50,872 nt of DNA from contig JAYUBY010000323.1 in assembly GCA_043740635.1 (NCBI GenBank), positions 1 to 50,872 on the forward strand, read 5' to 3'. The translations under genes and the position numbers were made by a program. The notes under the pieces are model-generated. The model was not told the DNA's origin and ran no database searches. It worked only from the letters and a program-made list of their open reading frames with translations. Every line of letters starts with the position of its first letter. Positions within the stretch are counted from its first letter, which is position 1. The DNA comes from Alphaproteobacteria bacterium. GTDB lineage: Bacteria > Pseudomonadota > Alphaproteobacteria > Caulobacterales > Caulobacteraceae. Of this stretch, positions 355 through 20,286 are shown one piece after another.

Positions 355-3060
355 CTATTTCTTCGGGGACGCAGCCCCCAACAACCCCTTCAACCGGTAG
401 AGCGCGTCCATCGCCTCGCGGGGGCTCATACCGTCGGGATCCATGACGCGGAGCGCTTCCTCGGCGGGGCTCGGCCCATAATACGGCGCAGCCGCTGCCA
501 CCGTGGCAAACAGGGGCAGGTCGTCGAGGTTGGCGGGGCCGGCGGCTTCGCGTTCCAAGCGCACCAGGACGTCGCGGGCGCGGGCGACCACGGGTGCAGG
601 GACGCCGGCGAGCTTGGCCACCTGGACGCCGTAGCTGCGGTCTGCCGGACCAGGCCCGGCCTCGTGCAGGAAGATTAGATCACCGTTCCACTCCCTGGCT
701 TTGAGCGACAGGTTGGCGACATAGGCTAGGCGGTGCTCCAGCACAGCAAGCTCGTGATAGTGCGTCGCGAAGAGCGCGCGACAGCGGTTGGTCTCGTGCA
801 GGGCCTCAGCGCAGGCCCAGGCGATGGCGAGCCCGTCGTACGTCGCCGTGCCGCGGCCGATCTCGTCCAAGATCACAAACGACCTCGGCGTGGCCTGGGT
901 GAGGATCGCAGCGGTCTCCACCATCTCGGCCATGAAGGTTGAACGGCCACGGGCCAGGTCGTCGCCGGCGCCGACGCGGCTGAACAGCCGGTCGACGACA
1001 CCTAGCCGCAAGCGCTTGGCGGGTACGAAACAGCCCGCCTGGGCCAGCACCGCCAACAGCGCGTTCTGGCGCAGGAATGTCGACTTGCCGGCCATATTCG
1101 GACCGGTGACCAGTGCTAGCCTCGGCCCGCCGGCGCCTGAACCATCAAGCCGGCAGTCATTGGGCGTGAAGGCCTCGCCCGCGCGGCGGACGGCGTTCTC
1201 GACCACTGGATGGCGTGCGGCCTGGACTTCGAAAGCCGTGGAGCGGTCAACGATCGGCCGCGACGCGCCAACATCCTCGGCCCACTCGGCGACGGCAGCG
1301 GCGACATCGAGGCGAGCGGCGGCGCTTGCTGCGGCCTGAATGTCTGCGGCGACGCTGGTGGCCACGTCACGCCATGCCTCGAAAGTCTCGAGCTCTATCG
1401 CCAGCGTACGTTCGGCGGCCTGGGCGATCTTGGCATCCAGTTCGGCCAGCTCGACGGTGGTAAAGCGCACTTGGTTGGCGAGTGTCTGGCGATGGATGAA
1501 GGTCGCATTCAGCGGCGCAGCAAAAAGCGGCTCGGCGGACTTGGCGGTGGTCTCCACGAAATAGCCAAGGACAGCGTTGTGGCGAACTTTCAGCGCGACG
1601 CCGCTTTCTTCCGCCAGGCGGGCCTCCAACTGCAAGATCACGCGGCGGCTGTCGTCGCGCAAAGCGCGGGCCTGGTCGAGTTCGGGGCGCACACCCTCGC
1701 CCACGAAACCGCCGTCGCGAGCTTGGGCCGGTAGGTCGGCGCCCAAGCCCTCGGTCAGCAGAGCACGAAACTGCGCGAGGTTGGGATGCAGGGCCGGTGT
1801 CAGGGCTTGCAACGCCGCCGTCACTTCCTCCGGCGCATGGACGAGCGGATCCTTGGCCGCTGCGAAGAGGGCGTTCACGGCTTCGCCGATCGCCAGGCCG
1901 TCGCGCAGGGCGCCGAGATCGCGAGGGCCGCCGCGTCCCAGCGCCAGTCGCGAAAGGGCTCGCGCCATATCGCCTAACCCTTTCAGGGCCTCCCGGAGCT
2001 TTTGCCTTTGCGACCGCTGCTCGCAGAACCACGCCACAGCATCGAGCCGCGTGTCGATGGCGGCGGGATCAAGCAGCGGCCGGGCCAGCCGCGCAGCCAG
2101 CAGGCGCGCTCCCGGCGCCGTCACCGTGCGATCGATGGCGGCCAGCAGGGAGCCGTCGCGGGAGCCGGAGGTCGCCTTCTCGATCTCCAGGCTGGTCCGC
2201 GTGGCCGGATCGATGGCCATCCCGTCGGCATCGCCGGCCCGGCGCGGCGCCGAGAGCGCAGGCAGCCTGCCGGCCTGCGTCGTCTCCAAGTGGGCGGCGA
2301 TAAGGCCGAGAGCGGAAATCTCCGCACCGGAAAGCGCGCCGAACCCGTCGAGGGTCTCCACGCCGTAGAGCCGCTTCAGTCGCGCCTCTGACGCTGAGGG
2401 CTCCGCCAACGCCTGCGGCAACGGCTGGACGAAGCCGCCGGCCTGCTTCAGGGCCGTGTTGATCGCCTCATCGACGAACAGCCGGTCAGGGACCAGGATC
2501 TCGGAGGGTCCCAACGCCGCCAACGCCGAAGCCAGGCCGGCCACACCTGTTGCGAGAACCTCCACCTCACCGGTGGAAAGCTCCACGCTGGCCACCGCCG
2601 CCTGACCGCCTCTTACCGCGATGGCTGCCAGCCGATTTGCGCCGCGGGCGTCGAGCAGGCCCTCTTCGGTGAGCGTGCCTGGCGTCACCACCCGCACCAC
2701 GTCGCGGTGAACCACCGACTTTGAGCCGCGCTTCCTGGCCTCGGCGGGGTTCTCCATCTGCTCGCAGACCGCAACCTTGAAACCCGCGCGGATCAGCTTG
2801 GCGAGATAGGCCTCGGCGGCATGGACCGGCACGCCGCACATCGGAATTGGATTACCCGCGTGCTGGCCGCGAGCGGTAAGGGTGATGCCGAGTGCGGCGC
2901 TCGCCTTCTGGGCGTCTTCGAAGAACAGTTCGTAGAAATCGCCCATGCGGAAGAACACCAACGCATCCGGCTGGCGCGTCTTGGCCTCGAAATACTGCGC
3001 CATCACGGGCGAAGCGCCGGCGGCGGGATCGGGCAATGTGCTGGGAGCTTGGGCGTTCAT
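355..3060 (-). CDS. mutS: DNA mismatch repair protein MutS
   Basis: 901 aa; FFRMGDFYELFFEDA, Walker A TGPNMAGKST, GRSTFMAEM, DEIGRGT, FATHYHEL, SYGVQVAKLAG. Confidence 0.99.
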   Translation of the reverse strand: MNAQAPSTLPDPAAGASPVMAQYFEAKTRQPDALVFFRMGDFYELFFEDAQKASAALGITLTARGQHAGNPIPMCGVPVHAAEAYLAKLIRAGFKVAVCEQMENPAEARKRGSKSVVHRDVVRVVTPGTLTEEGLLDARGANRLAAIAVRGGQAAVASVELSTGEVEVLATGVAGLASALAALGPSEILVPDRLFVDEAINTALKQAGGFVQPLPQALAEPSASEARLKRLYGVETLDGFGALSGAEISALGLIAAHLETTQAGRLPALSAPRRAGDADGMAIDPATRTSLEIEKATSGSRDGSLLAAIDRTVTAPGARLLAARLARPLLDPAAIDTRLDAVAWFCEQRSQRQKLREALKGLGDMARALSRLALGRGGPRDLGALRDGLAIGEAVNALFAAAKDPLVHAPEEVTAALQALTPALHPNLAQFRALLTEGLGADLPAQARDGGFVGEGVRPELDQARALRDDSRRVILQLEARLAEESGVALKVRHNAVLGYFVETTAKSAEPLFAAPLNATFIHRQTLANQVRFTTVELAELDAKIAQAAERTLAIELETFEAWRDVATSVAADIQAAASAAARLDVAAAVAEWAEDVGASRPIVDRSTAFEVQAARHPVVENAVRRAGEAFTPNDCRLDGSGAGGPRLALVTGPNMAGKSTFLRQNALLAVLAQAGCFVPAKRLRLGVVDRLFSRVGAGDDLARGRSTFMAEMVETAAILTQATPRSFVILDEIGRGTATYDGLAIAWACAEALHETNRCRALFATHYHELAVLEHRLAYVANLSLKAREWNGDLIFLHEAGPGPADRSYGVQVAKLAGVPAPVVARARDVLVRLEREAAGPANLDDLPLFATVAAAAPYYGPSPAEEALRVMDPDGMSPREAMDALYRLKGLLGAASPKK

Positions 3061-3189
3061 GAGCCGCGTGACGCTAACTGCCGAAGCAAGGTCCGTCAGC
3101 CCCCATGACCCCTTGAACCGCGGGCGAACAAGCCCAAGCTGTGGATGGATGTCGCATCTCGTGGAGCGTCTTCCCTTGGGCTTTCGACC

Positions 3190-3689
3190 GTGAGCTTCGT
3201 GGTGTTCCCCGCCGGCCCGTCCGACGCCGAGGAAATGCGCGCGTTCACGTGATCTCGTGGCGCGAGACCTATCGCGGCCTATTGCCGGACGCCTTCCTTG
3301 CGCGAATGAGCGAAGCCGGTTTCACGCGGCGTTTCCGGCGAGCGCTGACTAACCCGGGCGACAGCATTACTCTGGTCGGCGCGAGTCGCTGCAGCGCATC
3401 GCGACATGGAATTCCGGGCAAAGCGGAGATCGCAACGCTCCATATCCTTCGGCAGTCCCAGGGTTGCGGGCTGGGCGCGCAGCTAATGAAAGAAACCTCG
3501 AGGGCGCTCGCCGCCCAGGGCGCGACCTCACTGATGATCTCCGTCCTGCGTGACAACATAAGGGCGAGGGGTTTCTACGAACATCTGGGTGGCGAGCCCG
3601 AGGAGGCGCGACAGGAACCTGGGCCGGGCGGTCGTCTGCTCTTCGAGGTCGCCTATCGCTGGGCGGACATCCGAAGTCTGACCGCTTGA
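3190..3689 (+). pseudogene. GNAT-family acetyltransferase, frameshifted near the 5' end
   Basis: GTG at 3190 gives MSFVVFPAGPSDAEEM and then hits TGA. The GNAT body (ARVHVISWRETYRGLLPD...QGCGLG...VLRDNIRARGFYEHLGG) is in another frame. One extra G in GAAATGCGCGCGTT would join them. Confidence 0.7.
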
Positions 3690-4594
3690 TGCTGAAAACG
3701 CTCGGCCTGGCGTTGCTGGCGGCCAGCCTGACGCTTTCCGCTCGCGCCCAGCCGAAGCTCATGGATTGGCCGGACTTGATGGCGCGCCCCCTTCCAAAGG
3801 CCTCAGCCCGCCTGGCCTATGGTTCCGATCCACTGCAGGTCGCTGAGGTCTGGCGGCCAGATGGAAGGGGCCCGTTCCCGACTGTCCTGATGATCCATGG
3901 CGGCTGCTGGCGCTCGAGCCTCTCGAACCTGCACATCATGGACTACGCCGCTGAGGACCTGCGCCGGCGAGGGATCGGCGTCTGGAACATCGAATATCGT
4001 GGCGTCGACCGGCCGGGCGGCGGCTATCCTGGGACCTTCCTGGATGTGAACGCTGCTGCAGACGCGTTCGTAACCCATGCCAAATCCTATGGCCTGCGGA
4101 CCGACAAGATCGTGGTGCTGGGACACTCCGCCGGCGGCCACCTTGCCCTTTGGCTGGCCGGACGCACGAAGCTCCCGAGGACGAGCCCGCTGTTCGATCC
4201 AAAACGTCTCGACATCCTTTGGACAGTGAGCCTGGGCGGCGTGCCGGATCTCGCCACCGCGGCGGAGGCTTGTGGCGAGAAGACAGTCGCTCGCCTGCTG
4301 TCTGGATCGACGGCAGCCGATCCGCTGGCAGACACATCGCCAGCCCGATTACTACCCTTGCCGGTTGCCCGGATGCTGATCCACGGACAACTGGACGACA
4401 CCTCACCGCCAACCCAAGGCAAGGACTATGTCGCCAAGGCGCGCTCGGCCCACGACATCCGCGCCTGGGCCTACGCCATCCCCAGCGACGGTCATGTGGA
4501 GGAGATAGCGCCTGAATCCCGTACCTGGGCCGCCGTCACTGGGGGCCTGGATTCAGTCTTCCATAGCTCGACGGCGCCTGGGTGCTCCAGCTGA
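3689..4594 (+). CDS. Secreted alpha/beta hydrolase (esterase/lipase-like)
   Basis: Signal peptide, IHGGCW oxyanion motif, GHSAGGHLA nucleophile elbow, IHGQLDD, GH. ATG overlaps the upstream TGA. Confidence 0.9.
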   Translation: MLKTLGLALLAASLTLSARAQPKLMDWPDLMARPLPKASARLAYGSDPLQVAEVWRPDGRGPFPTVLMIHGGCWRSSLSNLHIMDYAAEDLRRRGIGVWNIEYRGVDRPGGGYPGTFLDVNAAADAFVTHAKSYGLRTDKIVVLGHSAGGHLALWLAGRTKLPRTSPLFDPKRLDILWTVSLGGVPDLATAAEACGEKTVARLLSGSTAADPLADTSPARLLPLPVARMLIHGQLDDTSPPTQGKDYVAKARSAHDIRAWAYAIPSDGHVEEIAPESRTWAAVTGGLDSVFHSSTAPGCSS

Positions 4595-4607
4595 CGGCAG
4601 CTCCGCT

Positions 4608-5561
4608 CTAAGCCTCGACCTTATCCTCGGCGGCATATGTCAGAGAAACAAACACATCTTCCAGGTCCGGGTCCTCGGTGGAGATATCCTTTATGTGCAA
4701 GCCGGCGGCGCGGATGGCGGCCAAGACCTGCTCGACCGACGAGTGGCCTGTCCTGTAGCCGACTGAGAACCCGCCAGCGGGCAAGAGGTGGGTCTCGAAG
4801 CCTTTCAGCGTCGGGGCCGCGGTGACCGGCTCCTCCGGCGTCACCAGCACCTTGCGAGTGTCCATGCGCGCAAGGAGGGTTGTCGTCGGCTCGCAGGCGA
4901 CCACCTGGCCGCGGTTGATGATCGCGATCTGGTCGCAGAGTTCCTGGGCCTCCTCAAGGTAGTGGGTGGTGAGGACGATGGTCACGCCCTTCCGGTTCAG
5001 CTCCAGCACATAGGCCCAAAGCTGGCGGCGCAGCTCCACGTCAACGCCTGCTGTTGGCTCATCGAGGATCAGCACCGGCGGGTTGTGGACCATGGCCTTG
5101 GCGACCATCAACCGACGCTTCATGCCGCCGGAAAGCTGGCGGACATAGGCGTTGGCCTTGTCGCCGAGGCCTAGCGCATTGAGCAATTCCATCGTTCGCC
5201 GCTCGGCTGGAGGAACGGCGTACATGCCGGCGGCCACTTCCAGCGACTCTTTCGGCGTGAAAAAGGGGTCGGCGGCGATCTCCTGAGGCACGACGCCAAT
5301 GGCGGCGCGCGCATCGCGGGGGCGCTCGTCGATGTCGCGACCCCAAATCGAAACTGTCCCGGAGGTCTTCCGGCAGAGGCCCGCCAGGATGTTGATGAAG
5401 GTCGACTTGCCGGCGCCGTTCGGACCGAGCAGCCCAAAGATCGAGCCGCGCGGGATCGCCAGGTCCAGGCCCTTCAGCGCCTGCATTTCCGGCGTGGTCT
5501 TAGTGGCGGCATAGGTCTTGACCAGGCCCTTGGCCTCAATCGCGTAGTGCGGCAGTTCCAT
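4608..5561 (-). CDS. ABC transporter ATP-binding protein (ABC-2/YadG-like)
   Basis: GPNGAGKST, LSGGMKRR, ILDEPTAG, TTHYLEEA. Start at 5561 or 5567 after AGGA. Confidence 0.93.
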   Translation of the reverse strand: MELPHYAIEAKGLVKTYAATKTTPEMQALKGLDLAIPRGSIFGLLGPNGAGKSTFINILAGLCRKTSGTVSIWGRDIDERPRDARAAIGVVPQEIAADPFFTPKESLEVAAGMYAVPPAERRTMELLNALGLGDKANAYVRQLSGGMKRRLMVAKAMVHNPPVLILDEPTAGVDVELRRQLWAYVLELNRKGVTIVLTTHYLEEAQELCDQIAIINRGQVVACEPTTTLLARMDTRKVLVTPEEPVTAAPTLKGFETHLLPAGGFSVGYRTGHSSVEQVLAAIRAAGLHIKDISTEDPDLEDVFVSLTYAAEDKVEA

Positions 5562-5653
5562 CGTCATCCTGTCGTTGACGGCGAAAGCCGCGGTCGCATA
5601 CCTAGGCGCGCGGCGGCCTCTCCACAATCGGGCCGCCAGTCAGGAACCGACAG

Positions 5654-5971
5654 ATGGCTCGCACCGCTCCGACCAAGGCCGCCGGCAAAACCGCAGCCAA
5701 GGCGCCCGCTCGCAAGGGCAAGCCGGCGCCCGAGTCCGTGACGTCTGTCGGCATTCCGGCGCCAGAGACCATCGTGGTCCGCTCCAAACGCGTCGCCTGC
5801 GATGGCGTCGGCGGCGCGCTCGGCCACCCGCGGGTGTGGCTCGAAATGGGCGAGGCGAATTTCGTGGAGTGTTCGTACTGCGACCGCCGGTTCGTTTTGG
5901 CAGTCGGCGCCGAGGGCAAGGAGAACGAACTCACTGCGCCCGGCGTCTACGAAGGCTCGCATGGGCACTAG
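5654..5971 (+). CDS. Zinc-finger (zf-CHCC / NDUFS6-like) domain protein
   Basis: VACDGVGGALGHPRVWL...VECSYCDRRF. AGGA RBS upstream. Confidence 0.9.
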   Translation: MARTAPTKAAGKTAAKAPARKGKPAPESVTSVGIPAPETIVVRSKRVACDGVGGALGHPRVWLEMGEANFVECSYCDRRFVLAVGAEGKENELTAPGVYEGSHGH

Positions 5972-6014
5972 TTTCCTCCCCGCTCATCATCCGGGCAGGT
6001 CCCGGCCATGACGC

Positions 6015-6385
6015 TCAAAAAAGATATGAGAGTCGGAAGGCCCTAGTAGTAGTGCCACCCCGGCAGGGTAGACGTGGCCCCCGCGTCTTGCTGTTCGGTG
6101 AATTTATCACCCCAGGGTCTCGCGCGTTGGAAGACATCTCGAGCGATGCCATATGGCACCCCGCGGGAGCGAGGGCGCGACCCTTAGATAATCAGCCTCG
6201 GTCAGAAACGCGGCGTACGCGAGCGCCACAAAGCGTCCCTTGAGATTGCGTCGCTCGATCGCGGCCCGAACCTGGTCGACGGTGTAAGAGCTGGACGCTC
6301 CCCAATCCGCCTCCAGTTCCCCCGGAAGATACCTTGCGTAAGCCTTTGCTGCCCTGTGGAGCGCGATCCGAGAGAAGAAATTCAT
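6015..6385 (-). pseudogene. Small hypothetical protein (resembles DUF6559), probably frameshifted near 6160
   Basis: ORF 6107-6385 (AAKAYARYLPGELEADWG..YTVDQVRAAI..LAYAAFL). At a G-run near 6160 a shifted frame continues with a more natural-looking VPYGIARDVFQRARPW to a stop at 6015. Confidence 0.45.
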
Positions 6386-6400
6386 CGGTCGGCGGCCGAC

Positions 6401-7519
6401 TTAGACTCTTAAGGGCATCAATATGTACTGCACGCCCGCGTCCTGCGGATCGAGCACTAGAGCCGGGTCGTTCGGCCCACCGAAACGCAGCTCAGCCATT
6501 TCGCCGGAGATCTGGTCGGTTATATCCAGCAAGTAGCGAGCATTGAACGACAGCTCGAAGGCGTCGCCGTCGTAGTCGAGCTCCAGCTCTTCGACAGCCT
6601 GGCCCGCTTCCATGTTGCGCACCGTGAGCACGCACTTGCCACCCTCGACAGCCATCCGCACCGAGCGGCTCTTCTCGGCTGAGATCGTGGCCACCCGGTC
6701 GACGGCCTTGGCGAAGAGCTTGGAATCCACCAGCACGATGCGGGTGTTGTCCTTGGGGATCACCCGCGGATAGTCGGGGAAGGTGCCATCGATCACTTTG
6801 GAGGTGAGCGCCGCACCGCCGAAGTCGAAGCGAACCTTCTGCGGGCTGATCTGCAGCTCGACCTGCTCGCCGGCGTCTTCCAGAAGGCGGCGGGCCTCGT
6901 TGATGGTCTTGCGGGGCACGATGACGCCGGGTGCTCCGACCGCGCCTTCCGGCGCAGCCATCTCGGCAAGGGCCAGACGCGAACCATCGGTGGCCACGGC
7001 GCGCAGCTTGGGGCTACCGTCTTCGACCACCGTGTGGAGATAGAGGCCGTTCAGGTAGTAGCGGGTCTCTTCGGCCGAGATCGCGAACTTGGTCTTGTCG
7101 ATCAGCCGGATCAGGTCGCCTACATCGACGGCAAGCCGGCTCGACAAACCGTCTGAGCTCATGACGGGGAAGTCGCCGGCGGGCAGGACTGGAAGGTTGA
7201 AGCGGCTGCGTCCGGCCGAAACCGTCAGGCGCGGATCCTCGCCTGTGAAGCTGAGCACCACGTCTGCCCCTTCGGGCAGCTTGCGGACAATCTCATAGAG
7301 GGTGTGAGCCGGGGCGGTGATCTGACCGGGTTGGTCGACCTGGGCCAAGGCCTCGTCGATAATCTCGAGATCTAGGTCCGTCGCCGAGAAGGTCAGACGG
7401 TCGCGCTCGGCAGACAGCAGGACGTTCGACAGAATCGGGATGGTGTTGCGCCGTTCAACCGCGCTTTGCACATGCCCTAGCGCCTTCAAAAGCGCCGCAC
7501 GCTCGATCGTCAGCTTCAT
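6401..7519 (-). CDS. dnaN: DNA polymerase III beta clamp
   Basis: MKLTIERAALLKALGHVQSAVERRNTIPILSNVLL, ATDLDLE, EETRYYLNG, FPDY, FNARYL, ILMPLRV. Confidence 0.99.
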   Translation of the reverse strand: MKLTIERAALLKALGHVQSAVERRNTIPILSNVLLSAERDRLTFSATDLDLEIIDEALAQVDQPGQITAPAHTLYEIVRKLPEGADVVLSFTGEDPRLTVSAGRSRFNLPVLPAGDFPVMSSDGLSSRLAVDVGDLIRLIDKTKFAISAEETRYYLNGLYLHTVVEDGSPKLRAVATDGSRLALAEMAAPEGAVGAPGVIVPRKTINEARRLLEDAGEQVELQISPQKVRFDFGGAALTSKVIDGTFPDYPRVIPKDNTRIVLVDSKLFAKAVDRVATISAEKSRSVRMAVEGGKCVLTVRNMEAGQAVEELELDYDGDAFELSFNARYLLDITDQISGEMAELRFGGPNDPALVLDPQDAGVQYILMPLRV

Positions 7520-7631
7520 GTCTCTGTCCGAACCGCACCGCACAGGCGCGATTCGCTGCCTGCGCCCCCGACCTGGAAGGGACTTGCGACATTAACGAAA
7601 TTCGAGGGGCGTGGAAGGGGCGCCCAGGCGC

Positions 7632-8252
7632 TTATGCGCGTCGATCCACAGCCCCGCCGGGATCGGACTCTTCGCCAGCCTCGTAAGGGTTCGGACCCGC
7701 GACGCTGGCGGGAGCCGGTGCTGCAGCCGGGCCTTCCTTCGCCGCCACGACGACCATGGCCGGGCGAACCAGGCGGCCGAGCAATTCGTAGCCAGGCTGC
7801 ATGACCTCAACGACGCCGCCTGCGGCCACATCTGTGCCGGGCTGTTCCATCATCGCCTGATGGCGGTGCGGATCGAATCGCTCACCACGCAGTGGTTCGA
7901 GTTTCTTCAGACCGTTCCGTTCAAAGGCGACTTGCAGTTCCTTTTCGGTCATCTCGATGCCAAGGACGAAATTCTTCACCGCCGGGTCGGCAGCCTCTGC
8001 CGGTTCGTGGGCCAGGGCGCGCGCGAGGTTGTCAGCCACGCCCAGCAAGTCGCGAGCGAATTTCTGGATGGCGTAGGCGCGCGCGTCATTGGCCTCGCGC
8101 TCGGCGCGCCGCCTAGTGTTCTCCGCTTCCGCCGCGAAGCGCAGAATTTGCTCCTTCAGCGCAGCGTTCTCTACCTTCAGCACGGTGTTTTCGTCCGCGG
8201 TCGCTTCGGCGATGAAGGCGTCAACTTCGTCTGGCGTATTGTCTTCGGACAT
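7632..8252 (-). CDS. grpE: Nucleotide exchange factor GrpE
   Basis: AEAENTRRR, FARDLLGVADNL, FDPHRHQAM, GYELLGRLVRPAMVVVA. Confidence 0.98.
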   Translation of the reverse strand: MSEDNTPDEVDAFIAEATADENTVLKVENAALKEQILRFAAEAENTRRRAEREANDARAYAIQKFARDLLGVADNLARALAHEPAEAADPAVKNFVLGIEMTEKELQVAFERNGLKKLEPLRGERFDPHRHQAMMEQPGTDVAAGGVVEVMQPGYELLGRLVRPAMVVVAAKEGPAAAPAPASVAGPNPYEAGEESDPGGAVDRRA

Positions 8253-8267
8253 CTGTCTCTTCGTCTC

Positions 8268-9368
8268 TTAAGCGTTCATGACTTGGCCCAGCACGCGGGC
8301 AGTATAGTCCACGAGGGGGATGATCCGGGCATAGTTCAACCGCGCGGGGCCGATAACCCCGATCGCGCCCAAAACCCGTTGCGAGCCCGTCATATAGGGG
8401 GCCGCGATCACGGCGGAACCCGAAAGCGAGAAGAGGCGGGTCTCCGCGCCAATGAAAATGCGCACGCCTTGGCCGTCGCGTACCCCGTCCAGAAGCGAAA
8501 TCAGCTGCTCCTTCTGCTCAAGGTCCTCGAAGAGCGAGCGGACGCGCTCCAGGTCTTCGACGGCGCCAGCCTCCTCAAGCAAGTTGGCGCGGCCCCGCAC
8601 GATCAGCGCGCGATCCTTCACCTCGCCGCCGCCCCAGGCCGCCAAGCCGTCCTCGACCAGCTTGGCGGCGGTGGCGTCAAGCTCGCGCCGAGCTTGGTCG
8701 AGGTCGGCGCGTAGATCGCTTTTCGCCTCAAGCAATGTACGGCCGCGAAGGCGGGCGTTCAGGAAATTCGAGGCCTCGGTCAGCGCGGAGGGTGTGACGC
8801 CGGCCGGCAGGCGGATCAGCCGATTCTCCACCGTGCCGTCGGCGAAGACCATGATTACCAGCGTTCGGTCGCCGCCCAGCGACACGAATTCAACATGCTT
8901 GACCCCTGCATCGCGGATCGGGGTCACAACGACGCCGGCGCCTCCGGCCAGGCCGGAAAGTATGGAGCTGGCCTCGTTCAGAGCATCTTCGTAGTTGCGG
9001 CCGTGGGCGTGCAGCCGCGCCTCAATGGCTTGGCGGTCGATTTGACCGATGTCGCCGACCTCCAGCAGGCCATCGACGAACAGCCGTAGCCCCGCATGGG
9101 TCGGCAGACGGCCGGCGCTCATGTGTGGCGCGCCCAGCAAGCCGAGCTGGGTCAGATCCTGCATGGTGTTGCGGATCGAGGCGGGAGAGAGCGGCAGGCC
9201 ACCCTTAGAAAGGGTGCGCGACCCCACCGGCTCGCCGGTTTCCAGATAGCTCTCCACGATACGGCGGAAGATGTCCCGCGCGCGTTCGTCAAGTTCGGCC
9301 AACGAGGGACCGGAGGCGAAAAGGGGGCTACTCACTGGGACGTGCGCTGGGTTCTCACGAGCGTCCAT
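8268..9368 (-). CDS. hrcA: Heat-inducible transcription repressor HrcA
   Basis: [50 protein letters not shown]. Adjacent to grpE. Confidence 0.98.
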
Positions 9369-16438: not shown

Positions 16439-16909
16439 TTACCCGCGCGTTGCGCCTGGCCCGGTCCTGGCGTCGCCGACAAGCGCGAGCTGACGCGTGC
16501 CGCGCCAAGTGTTCCAGGTTCCAACACCAACTGAAAAGAACACCCATTGGCTCCAGATGACCTGGCCCGTCGCATAGGCCCACGCGCGAACGCCGGGGTC
16601 GACGATCCGGGCAATGTGGGTGACGACGCAGAGAAGTTGAAATGCGGCCGCCGCCAACGGCCAGTAACGCTTTGTACGCAGAGCGAGCACGAGGAGTAGA
16701 AGGAACAGGCAGGTATCGGCTCCGAACGCGCCCCACTGGGTGCCGATCCAGCGCGGATCACGCAGCACCATGGTGGTTAGCCAGCTCAGCATCAGGCCGC
16801 CGGCGGCGACCTGCTCCTCACGGCCACCCTTCCAGAACGCTCCGCCGCCGACGATGACGGCGATCGCCAGTCCGACCCAGGGCGGCAGGGCGTAATTGTG
16901 CAGCTGCAA
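16439..16909 (-). CDS. Small multi-pass membrane protein of unknown function
   Basis: About 5 hydrophobic segments; AFWKGGREEQVAAG, LALRTKRYWPLAAAAFQLLCVVTH. Same strand as the two upstream genes; start uncertain. Confidence 0.8.
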   Translation of the reverse strand: MQLHNYALPPWVGLAIAVIVGGGAFWKGGREEQVAAGGLMLSWLTTMVLRDPRWIGTQWGAFGADTCLFLLLLVLALRTKRYWPLAAAAFQLLCVVTHIARIVDPGVRAWAYATGQVIWSQWVFFSVGVGTWNTWRGTRQLALVGDARTGPGATRG

Positions 16910-17427: not shown

Positions 17428-18204
17428 TCAGACCCGGAAAAAAGTCCGCCCGAGGTCCGAGAGAGCGTGGAGCCCCGCCAGCATGCCCCCGAACGCGAGG
17501 GCGGTGATGACTGCGATCGCCACAATCGTCCCGATCCGAGCGGCGGGACTCAGATCATTGCGGTCGAGCCAAGTTCGGGTTCCGATTTGAAGTTCTCGTC
17601 GAGCAGAACCCAGGTCATACAGAGCACTTCCCGCAAGACCATTTCCGAAGGCTTGAACGCCGCCAGCTTCCGCGTGCCGGACACGAGGTGCTGGACCATC
17701 TTGGCTTGCGCCGGGGTCGCCGCCAGATCGACGAGCTGTCGCTCCAATTGCGCCCAGGTAAAGGTCGGAAGGGCTTCCTCCCGGGCCGGCGGGTTCGGCC
17801 AGCGGGCCTCGAAATCGTCGATTTCCTGGCGGAGACGTAGAGCTCTGCCGATCACCGCGCGGTTGTCGAAGTTCTGCCAGTCGCCCATCAGCCTGTTCCT
17901 CTGTTGCCGACTCATCCGGCCAGAGGTTAGCGGCCTCGTCTGTCCTGATCGCGTCGTGTCCTGATCCGGTCAGGACACGGTTAACGTCAAGCTGCCGAGC
18001 AAGGCGCGCTGCGGAGTAGCGATCTTCAACGCCCAGCTTGCGACGTGCGCGATCGCAATAAGTGTCCACAGAGGTCTTGGACATTCCCAGCTGCCGAGCA
18101 ATTTGCTTGGACGAAAGATGCTGGTCGACCAACCGCAGGCATTCGCGCTCACGAGGCGTTAGCAGCGCCACCGATTCCTCGGAAATTATGTCTCGTGCGA
18201 CCAT
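17428..18204 (-). CDS. LuxR-type HTH protein with long linker and C-terminal transmembrane anchor (258 aa)
   Basis: N-terminal LTPRERECLRLVDQHLSSKQIARQLGMSKTSVDTYCDRARRKLGVEDRYSAAR (LuxR HTH) and C-terminal RNDLSPAARIGTIVAIAVITALAFGGMLAGLHAL (TM helix) in the same uninterrupted frame. Confidence 0.85.
   Translation of the reverse strand: MVARDIISEESVALLTPRERECLRLVDQHLSSKQIARQLGMSKTSVDTYCDRARRKLGVEDRYSAARLARQLDVNRVLTGSGHDAIRTDEAANLWPDESATEEQADGRLAELRQPRGDRQSSTSPPGNRRFRGPLAEPAGPGGSPSDLYLGAIGATARRSGGDPGASQDGPAPRVRHAEAGGVQAFGNGLAGSALYDLGSARRELQIGTRTWLDRNDLSPAARIGTIVAIAVITALAFGGMLAGLHALSDLGRTFFRV
17550..17888 (-). CDS. 112-aa hypothetical protein nested inside the LuxR-TM gene (same strand, shifted frame)
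   Basis: GAGGA RBS 8 nt before the ATG. First 14 codons all end in G/C. Globular helical sequence MGDWQNFDNRAVIGRALRLRQEIDDFEARWP...FTWAQLERQLVDLA...FKPSEMVLREVLCMTWVLLDENF. Confidence 0.75.
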   Translation of the reverse strand: MGDWQNFDNRAVIGRALRLRQEIDDFEARWPNPPAREEALPTFTWAQLERQLVDLAATPAQAKMVQHLVSGTRKLAAFKPSEMVLREVLCMTWVLLDENFKSEPELGSTAMI

Positions 18205-18726: not shown

Positions 18727-20286
18727 ATGCGCAGAACGCCGATGAAACCGGCTCGACCTCTTGGCGAGCGCAGACCCAGGCGCGCCCAGATCAGCGCCGA
18801 GCAGCTGGCCTCGCTCAGCCATGAATTCCGCACGCCCTTGAACGGGGTGCTGGGTATGTCGCGTCTGCTTGAGGGCACGCGCCTCACTGCCGAACAACGA
18901 GCCTATGTCGCAGCTCTCCGGGATTCCGGCGAACACCTGCTGACCCTGGTCAACGACGTGCTGGACTTCGCCAAGCTCGGGGCTGGCAAAGTCGAACTGC
19001 ACACCAGCGAGGTGGAGGTAGGCGACCTGTTGCGGGGCGTTTGCGAGTTGCTGTCACCCCGGGCACGCGAAAAGGGCATCGAGATTGCCTGGGCCGCGCC
19101 CAAGGATTTGGGCGCGATCCGCGCCGATGACGGACGCCTGCGCCAGATCCTGCTCAATTTCGCCGGGAACGCCGTGAAATTCACCGAGGTTGGTGGGGTG
19201 CTGCTCAGCGTCACCCAAGGGCCGCAAGGCCGCGTCCGGTTCGCCGTCGACGACACTGGCCCCGGCGTATCCGCCGCCCAGCGCGAGCGTATATTCGAAG
19301 CCTTTGCCCAGGCCGATCCCACCCACGCTCACCTAGGCGGCGCGGGACTGGGTCTCGCCATCGCCCGGCGCCTGGCCACGGCCATGGACGGCCAGGTTGG
19401 CGTAGAAGAGAGGCCGCAAGGCGGCGCTCGGTTTTGGTTCGAGGCCACGTTCCGCGCCGTTCCCGGATCGAATTCCGCCCCCGGGTTGGAGGACCGCAAG
19501 GTTGGCGTGGTCTCCCCAAACACGATCATTCGTGAAGCGGCCTCGCGGCAGATCGAAGCTTGCGCCGGGCGCGCCATCGCCGCCGCAGACCTCGACACTC
19601 TGATGGCTGCGACGCAGTTCGGCGATGTGATCCTCGTAGACCACGCCCTAGCGATCGGCACGCGGCTGATCCGCCGTCCACCAGAACGGCGCGCCATCAT
19701 TCTGCTCGCTCCGGAGGAACGCGCCCTGATCGGCCGCTATCGGCGCGCCGGATTCGCCGGCTACCTGATCAAACCGCTCCGCCGCGCGTCGCTGGAGGAG
19801 CGGGTCCTGGTTGCCGCGGCCGGCGCCGAACAGGCGCACAGCTCCGACGATCAGAACCATGACGAACGCATCGCCACGGCTGCTGCCCCCGGCAAGCGGG
19901 TGCTACTGGTCGAAGACAATCCGATCAACGCGCTCCTGGCTCGCGCGCTTCTGACCCGCGAGGGCTGTGAAATCGATCACGCCAGCCGGGGCGAGGAAGC
20001 CCTTGCCGCCGTCAAGGTCGGCGCCTACGACCTGATCCTCATGGACATGCGCATGCCCGGTCTCTCCGGCGTGGAGACTGCAGGCGCAATGCGGGCTCTC
20101 GGCATCGAGACCCCTATCGTCGCGCTGACGGCCAACGCCTTTGAGGACGACCGGCATGCTTGCCTGGCCGCCGGCATGAACGACTTCTTGGTCAAGCCGA
20201 TGTCGCCTGACGCCTTGCGCGCTATGCTGAGCCGCTGGACCGGAGCTGCCTGGACGGAAACCGCGAGGCGCGCCAAGGTCGGATGA
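18727..20286 (+). CDS. shkA: Cytoplasmic hybrid histidine kinase, ShkA-like (HisKA-HATPase-pseudoREC-REC)
   Basis: No sensor or TM domain; SHEFRTPLNG, NAVKFT, DDTGPG, GAGLGLAI; degenerate receiver with GFAGYLIKPLRRASL; DER linker; REC with VEDN/MDMRMPG/KP; followed by ampG. Confidence 0.85.
   Translation: MRRTPMKPARPLGERRPRRAQISAEQLASLSHEFRTPLNGVLGMSRLLEGTRLTAEQRAYVAALRDSGEHLLTLVNDVLDFAKLGAGKVELHTSEVEVGDLLRGVCELLSPRAREKGIEIAWAAPKDLGAIRADDGRLRQILLNFAGNAVKFTEVGGVLLSVTQGPQGRVRFAVDDTGPGVSAAQRERIFEAFAQADPTHAHLGGAGLGLAIARRLATAMDGQVGVEERPQGGARFWFEATFRAVPGSNSAPGLEDRKVGVVSPNTIIREAASRQIEACAGRAIAAADLDTLMAATQFGDVILVDHALAIGTRLIRRPPERRAIILLAPEERALIGRYRRAGFAGYLIKPLRRASLEERVLVAAAGAEQAHSSDDQNHDERIATAAAPGKRVLLVEDNPINALLARALLTREGCEIDHASRGEEALAAVKVGAYDLILMDMRMPGLSGVETAGAMRALGIETPIVALTANAFEDDRHACLAAGMNDFLVKPMSPDALRAMLSRWTGAAWTETARRAKVG

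Follow-up and report, generated by a model that had tools for sequence, protein, structure and literature searches.

A conserved gene nested in the linker of a predicted membrane-anchored LuxR-type regulator in Caulobacteraceae

The closest described systems

In phage lambda, Rz1 is nested in Rz on the same strand and out of frame. As far as the literature covered extends, bacterial chromosomes very rarely contain fully nested same-strand pairs of which both products have been detected: the consulted part of Meydan et al. (bioRxiv 10.1101/520783) names comS in srfAB of Bacillus subtilis and rpmH in rnpA of Thermus thermophilus as the only two earlier bacterial out-of-frame internal initiations, and says that most new internal-initiation candidates are poorly conserved. 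The pair described here shares the same-strand, out-of-frame nesting of comS and rpmH, but its nested gene, which has no sequence relation to these two or to Rz1, differs from all three in having its own transcript, as shown in C. crescentus, and a product of 82-135 aa, and in being kept across a family and among paralogues down to ~35% identity.

The enclosing gene can be compared with the transmembrane transcription regulators (Demey et al. 2023, PMC10269533; HigX, PMC13384398), which likewise combine a DNA-binding domain with a single predicted transmembrane (TM) helix. Our protein differs from them in its LuxR/GerE helix-turn-helix (HTH), its long low-complexity tether and an almost absent periplasmic part, and its gene differs in a likely internal operator and a second gene within the tether; the words LuxR and GerE do not occur in the main text of Demey et al. 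(PMC10269533). Unlike the AHL-receptor LuxR proteins of quorum sensing, which carry an N-terminal autoinducer domain, the outer protein has just 13 residues ahead of its HTH, and Pfam and NCBIfam scans detected no autoinducer-binding domain in it.

An orthologous nested pair has been published for Caulobacter crescentus, as an observation without a function. In C. vibrioides NA1000, the 804-nt CDS of CCNA_00823 (CC_0782, a LuxR-like DNA-binding protein) encloses the 360-nt CDS of CCNA_03941 in another frame, with an internal transcription start site (TSS) (Schrader et al. 2014, PMC4117421, Fig. 4E and Dataset S1). Within the consulted parts of that paper, both genes are mapped by Ribo-seq and verified by LC-MS, as is the inner start of CCNA_03941; the dataset gives no peptide positions on CCNA_00823, and the pair is covered by a single sentence and one figure panel, neither of which addresses function, conservation, a TM anchor or an operator. 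The tag printed there, CCNA_00832, is apparently a misprint of CCNA_00823; in the paper's own dataset, CCNA_00832 is a 900-nt LysR gene.

In the data of Zhou et al. (2015, PMC4287350), taken from rows of 12 of the 20 supplement files, the internal TSS lies at 884929, 19 nt before the CCNA_03941 ATG, with counts of 1,914-8,956 against 19-41 for the start of the outer gene, whose transcript is weak and leaderless. Neither start is cell-cycle regulated in these rows, and the internal one is strong in ordinary growth; Dataset S1 of the same study also contains a weak antisense start within CCNA_03941, at 884569 (+). In the Ribo-seq rows of Schrader et al. (PMC4117421), the NA1000 inner gene reaches an RPKM of 1106-1470 and the orthologue of the first gene downstream (down1) 597-681. 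A first-pass annotation of the DNA analysed here had proposed that one transcript yields both proteins; C. crescentus speaks against this, as its inner gene has an internal transcript of its own, far stronger than the outer one, and a frameshift is thus not needed for its expression.

The literature searched, which comprised a minority of subscription papers and of supplements, yielded no functional study of CCNA_00823/CC0782 or of the module, and CCNA_03941 occurs in none of its main texts. Family-wide conservation, a palindrome at a fixed distance that differs between HTH types, and modules without the inner gene were not found in it either and are reported here.

Layout of the locus and selection on both reading frames

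The window, by which we mean the whole analysed stretch of 50,872 nucleotides from a contig assigned to Caulobacteraceae, carries an orthologue of the CCNA_00823/CCNA_03941 pair. Gene order, +1 nesting and two downstream hypothetical genes in corresponding positions are common to both; only sequence differs, namely in the HTH recognition helix and the palindrome. The features are as follows.

16439..16909, minus strand: down2, ~156 aa, multi-pass membrane protein, synteny orthologue of CCNA_00821
16978..17355, minus strand: down1, 125 aa, predicted helical hairpin and disordered tail ending L-R-x-I-R-A-A, synteny orthologue of CCNA_00822/CC_0781
17428..18204, minus strand: outer gene, 258 aa, LuxR/GerE HTH, G/A/R/P-rich linker, N-D-L motif and predicted TM helix
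17550..17888, minus strand: inner gene, 112 aa, in the +1 frame of the outer gene, orthologue of CCNA_03941
17897..17901, minus strand: Shine-Dalgarno (SD) element GAGGA of the inner gene, 8 nt before its ATG
17905..17922, minus strand: predicted -10 region (conserved TG..T) with a start near 17907, placed from the homologous internal TSS of C. crescentus
17941..17961, no strand assigned: second, imperfect site, 16 nt downstream of the palindrome, right half TCAGGACA almost invariant, at ~-44 of the internal start
17957..17977, no strand assigned: perfect palindrome TGTCCTGA-N5-TCAGGACA, likely HTH operator, within the outer CDS just past the HTH codons
18302..18691, plus strand: divergently oriented XRE (HTH_3) regulator, more loosely associated

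The first-pass annotation, in which an HTH/linker/TM ORF at 18204-17428 (-) encloses an ORF at 17888-17550 (-), was borne out in its main structural claims. The inner start lies 316 nt after the outer start (334 nt in NA1000), each 1 mod 3, which sets the inner gene in the +1 frame. The claimed well-spaced ribosome-binding site is present at 17901-17897, each of inner codons 1-14 indeed ends in G or C, and the inner stop falls at the beginning of the RNDL-TM tail, where the inner 3' end ATG ATC TGA coincides with the outer N-D-L-S codons (17559-17548). A Pfam scan assigns outer residues 14-69 to the GerE/LuxR HTH (E 5.5e-14, above the cut-off), and an in-frame hydrophobic tail at ~224-247 is a TM helix by hydropathy prediction only. 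The linker length of about 110 aa given earlier holds for the part that overlaps the inner gene (~113 codons), while the whole stretch from HTH to TM helix measures ~155 aa.

The outer protein shares 39% identity over 262 columns with a named C. vibrioides LuxR (P0143). The inner protein is 47% identical over 92 aa to CCNA_03941, which shares a cluster with one Caulobacter orthologue of the inner protein. A collection of 15 billion proteins contains the inner protein and lacks the exact outer one, whose start may be called differently there.

For the comparative analysis, 156 loci were chosen by their inner-protein match alone: 56 from the genus (all matches), 60 from the family (a subset of 203 matches, picked to span divergence) and 40 further ones. 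The HTH frame keeps its phase and stays open beyond the inner stop in 152/156 loci (114 of the 116 from genus and family, 38 of the 40 further). The pattern is broken in L060 by an added base, in L116 by a stop, in L175 by a frameshift and in L179, an inner homologue with no HTH upstream; in L004, the inner gene carries a stop. Relative to its close relative L057, the outer frame of L060 is shifted by one extra C in a C run of the palindrome region, which represents either a sequencing error or a slippage-prone tract within the likely operator. Openness in a single genome is weak evidence, because 653 of 4595 112-codon windows (14%) in long genes of this genome are open in the +1 frame by chance; the count across the 156 loci greatly exceeds this expectation.

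A synonymous T in the inner gene that would make an outer stop occurs in 1 of 2220 cases, against 138/1991, 116/1296, 49/1104 and 100/1380 (4-9%) for T at equivalent junctions in control genes of the same loci. The loci are kin and not independent, and we therefore also counted by alignment column, which reduces the effect of kinship: among the 50 closer loci, T is found in 0/25 stop-creating columns versus 54/64 other inner columns, and the by-column values in four control genes are 12/14, 15/19, 10/13 and 3/4. Owing to the kinship of the loci, the Fisher value is an overstatement. A synonymous-recoding simulation produced 2.9 stops per sequence; this stop count is its usable output, the simulation being an unfair null for linker conservation since it destroys shared ancestry.

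Divergence at four-fold sites is 0.448 in the inner gene, 0.445 in down1 and 0.495 in the HTH, while amino-acid divergence is 0.45 in the linker versus 0.21 in the inner protein. With inner four-fold sites diverging like those of down1 and the linker diverging twice as much as the inner protein, the linker would be a tether that needs only to be translatable; constraint on its residues is undetectable in these alignments. Over the overlap, purifying selection is thus seen in the inner frame as amino-acid conservation and in the outer frame as stop avoidance only. The inner gene has its own ribosome-binding site and start, and both frames are selected, the properties by which same-strand nested genes are recognised. 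The dual coding of the 339-nt region proposed at the outset, for which an outer frame open in orthologues and a conserved inner protein had been named as checks, is on this comparative evidence close to certain, with start codon and SD element kept as well.

Two readings would do without two separate genes. If the outer open frame were an artefact of GC content and the TM tail untranslated, the proportion of windows open by chance in one genome would be relevant, but the frame is open in nearly all loci, stops are avoided and the TM tail is conserved in nested and non-nested relatives, so that we regard this reading as practically dismissed. A programmed +1 frameshift yielding a functional HTH-inner fusion had been raised as an alternative to two products. 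Three database proteins (P0205, P0265 and P0297), half of the six long matches inspected among 150 listed, do join the HTH to a portion of the inner protein. Their junctions differ, however, with the frame switched at different places, and they are probably sporadic indels; the inner start is moreover verified by LC-MS and served by its own TSS in C. crescentus, SD and ATG are conserved, and the inner frame can be closed as near as 3 nt upstream of the ATG, as in L008 and L023. A functional fusion is therefore very improbable.

The inner protein has 355 homologues among 367 candidates, the sole organism name displayed being Phenylobacterium, with matches in 50/60 genomes of the genus and 154/400 of the family, and its sequences form 249 clusters at 50% identity. 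An SD-like element precedes the inner start in nearly all 116 loci, and the start codon is conserved. Its AlphaFold2 model consists of a long helix and a three-helix bundle (mean pLDDT 86). Searches of Pfam, NCBIfam and PHROGs gave no usable family, PDB sequences no match below E 0.3, Foldseek no match at E<=0.001 and the Atlas only unnamed clusters, under 0.9; the best structural Z, 6.1, is to generic helical bundles. TraM and QslA are proteins of the anti-activator type; with regard to such proteins, these searches yield no family match for the inner protein and, in fold, the resemblance to generic helical bundles.

Among the 116 loci, the nested pair is accompanied by down1 in 113 and by down2 in 115. 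An XRE match is present in 65/116, and its position varies outside the genus. For down1 and down2, no usable family was found in Pfam, NCBIfam, PHROGs or PDB sequences, and a fold search with down1 gave no match. The down1 family has an invariant Lys in a K-P motif, a terminal AA in 36/54 members and L/I-R-x-V/I/L in 31/54, a tail that presumably resembles ClpX-binding or degradation signals. In the consulted data of PMC4551563, CC_0781 (down1) is raised 13.2-fold in stationary phase and stands at 0.10 in a cspC mutant.

Additional copies of these genes were also observed. This genome has a second down1 paralogue (L121, G000:C452:5511-5807) in a 3.3-kb locus without matches to HTH, inner gene or down2, and L118 and L119 of genus g21 contain a tandem down1 pair with down2 behind it; an HTH gene was not seen in either locus. 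On the other side of the nested pair, the divergent XRE gene is followed at 18727-20286 (+) by a soluble hybrid histidine kinase, which may be ShkA-like, and TTAA/TTAAC elements lie between and around these two genes.

A candidate self-operator and the internal promoter

The centre of the palindrome lies 79 nt before the inner ATG, at ~-60 of the internal start. By direct motif count, the palindrome is present in 80 of the 116 loci and its centre is at 79 nt in 74 of these 80; in the Caulobacter locus L065, a palindrome of different sequence was read by eye at this distance, and other HTH types have other N5 palindromes in the same place. Beyond the genus, at least 5 of 6 pairs match in 66/75 loci versus 114/225 control windows, a modest signal in GC-rich DNA; the corresponding values for loci that lack the inner gene are 24/32 versus 49/96. 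Across the 4.7-Mb genome, there are one perfect site and three sites with two mismatches, and no wider regulon was found there; given a site unique in the genome, the module seems to regulate itself only.

The recognition helix and the palindrome appear to have changed together in part of the data set. In 12 loci, a Thr-to-Ala substitution in the helix is accompanied by a symmetric T-to-C change in both palindrome arms; these loci form one clade (support 0.947), and the covariation therefore counts as one event. A half-changed palindrome with an unchanged helix is found in L007, L008 and L081, and the HTH envelope used in the comparison was wrong in L001, L028, L045, L065 and L089. On these data, the HTH of the regulator probably binds the palindrome within its own gene.

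An alternative role for the palindrome as an RNA hairpin was rejected: it lies upstream of the start of the strong transcript and would contain C-A mismatches in L007, L008, L081 and L095. As a separate observation, genomes of genus g46 (for example G253, G266, G260 and G207) have two to three paralogous nested modules each, among which recognition helix and N5 palindrome differ.

A plain sigma-70 consensus scan of the internal promoter region found nothing. In activated promoters, the lux box lies near -42, and centres at ~-60 and ~-44 over a poor -10 hexamer are what we take to be activator geometry.

Origin of the inner gene and working model

A search with down1 reached 32 loci without the inner gene, 30 in family f135 and two paralogues in genus g21. 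All 32 encode the same HTH-linker-TM protein, with a linker of 48-149 aa and an N-x-L-like motif in most. The three-gene module of f135 thus matches the nested one in its regulator (HTH, linker, N-x-L motif and TM helix), in both downstream genes and in an N5 palindrome that follows the HTH, and differs in its lack of an inner gene and in its linker lengths; no paper on the function of an HTH-TM/down1/down2 module was found in the literature searched. The inner gene itself occurs in 34/50 genomes of the family, in 0/200 of five other families of the order and in 1/201 of f135, where the single complete nested module (L186, G1376) was likely transferred.

These distributions bear on how the inner gene arose. 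Its spread is narrower than that of the host gene, and it has no older free-standing homologue: the only free-standing copy among the 156 loci, L179 (G195:C11), has no HTH or down1 nearby and by eye resembles the nested g21 copies. In 111 of 114 loci, the inner stop borrows its TG from the Leu codon that the outer frame has in N-x-L; of 29 non-nested loci, nine carry a +1 stop at this motif even without an inner gene. The non-nested relatives, the restricted spread and the position of the stop on N-x-L favour overprinting, which we regard as the fairly probable origin. An older three-gene module (HTH-linker-TM, down1, down2) with an internal promoter would have preceded the inner gene, which would have been born within an early Caulobacteraceae copy, in linker DNA that was unconstrained and already being transcribed.

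Alternatively, the inner gene might have existed beforehand and been inserted into the linker, or be ancestral, with a loss in those lineages that are not nested. Resolution is poor in the HTH+down1 tree (91 loci, 181 columns), where nested and non-nested loci interleave; four long-linker non-nested loci fall within the nested group (0.879), which makes loss of the inner gene as possible as a late gain, and the existence of L179 could be read in the same direction. No second nested ORF was found in the long-linker non-nested loci L132, L137, L147 and L150. Insertion or ancestry is nevertheless doubtful, given the absence from the five other families, a sole f135 case that is nested too, the lack of any family or fold match, a stop placed on a motif shared with the non-nested proteins and the likeness of L179 to nested copies.

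For the function of the module, we favour, with reasonable though not strong confidence, a four-gene unit in which the predicted membrane-anchored LuxR-type regulator activates the internal promoter through two sites in its own gene. The weak leaderless transcript would give little tethered HTH, which, anchored by its C-terminal helix, would reach the DNA through the linker, bind the two sites and turn on the strong internal transcription from which the inner protein and down1 are made. The TM helix, together with the multi-pass partner down2, would be the likely entry point of a signal. The inner protein would most simply be a soluble partner, either of the HTH, in feedback, or, with about the same probability, of down1.

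A strong internal promoter that is not regulated by the cell cycle also fits a constitutive or a repressed promoter. The tethered HTH could repress the internal promoter and its own read-through until a signal or proteolysis relieves it, as the overlap of the second site with the -35 region (about -34 to -54) and the stationary-phase rise of down1 would allow; the site centres over a poor -10 hexamer have the geometry of activation, however, and growing cells already show strong activity of this promoter, so that repression seems unlikely and activation is clearly preferred to it. A further reading, which we hold to be possible but somewhat less probable than not, makes the inner protein an output or partner of down1/down2 without action on the regulator, the nesting buying only co-expression. 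It accords with the similarly high translation of inner gene and down1 in NA1000, the very weak start of the outer gene and the 32 modules that lack the inner gene, but the inner gene occurs without the HTH gene in just one of the 156 loci, and some nested loci have no down1 match. Such a role is compatible with the activator model, from which it differs only in the target of the inner protein. A broader extension, in which the modules are orthogonal tethered switches with self-operators and the overprinted inner protein is a feedback inhibitor of old de novo birth, is tentative and rather unlikely as a whole.

To what was known of the pair, this analysis adds family-wide selection on both frames, a likely self-operator and non-nested relatives. 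A deletion or transposon in CCNA_00823 also disturbs CCNA_03941 or its promoter, and matched sets of HTH and palindrome may serve as orthogonal regulator parts. The nested pair persists across the family and in a genetically tractable model organism, with relatives that lack the inner gene, which makes both birth by overprinting and the reach of a tethered regulator to DNA directly testable.
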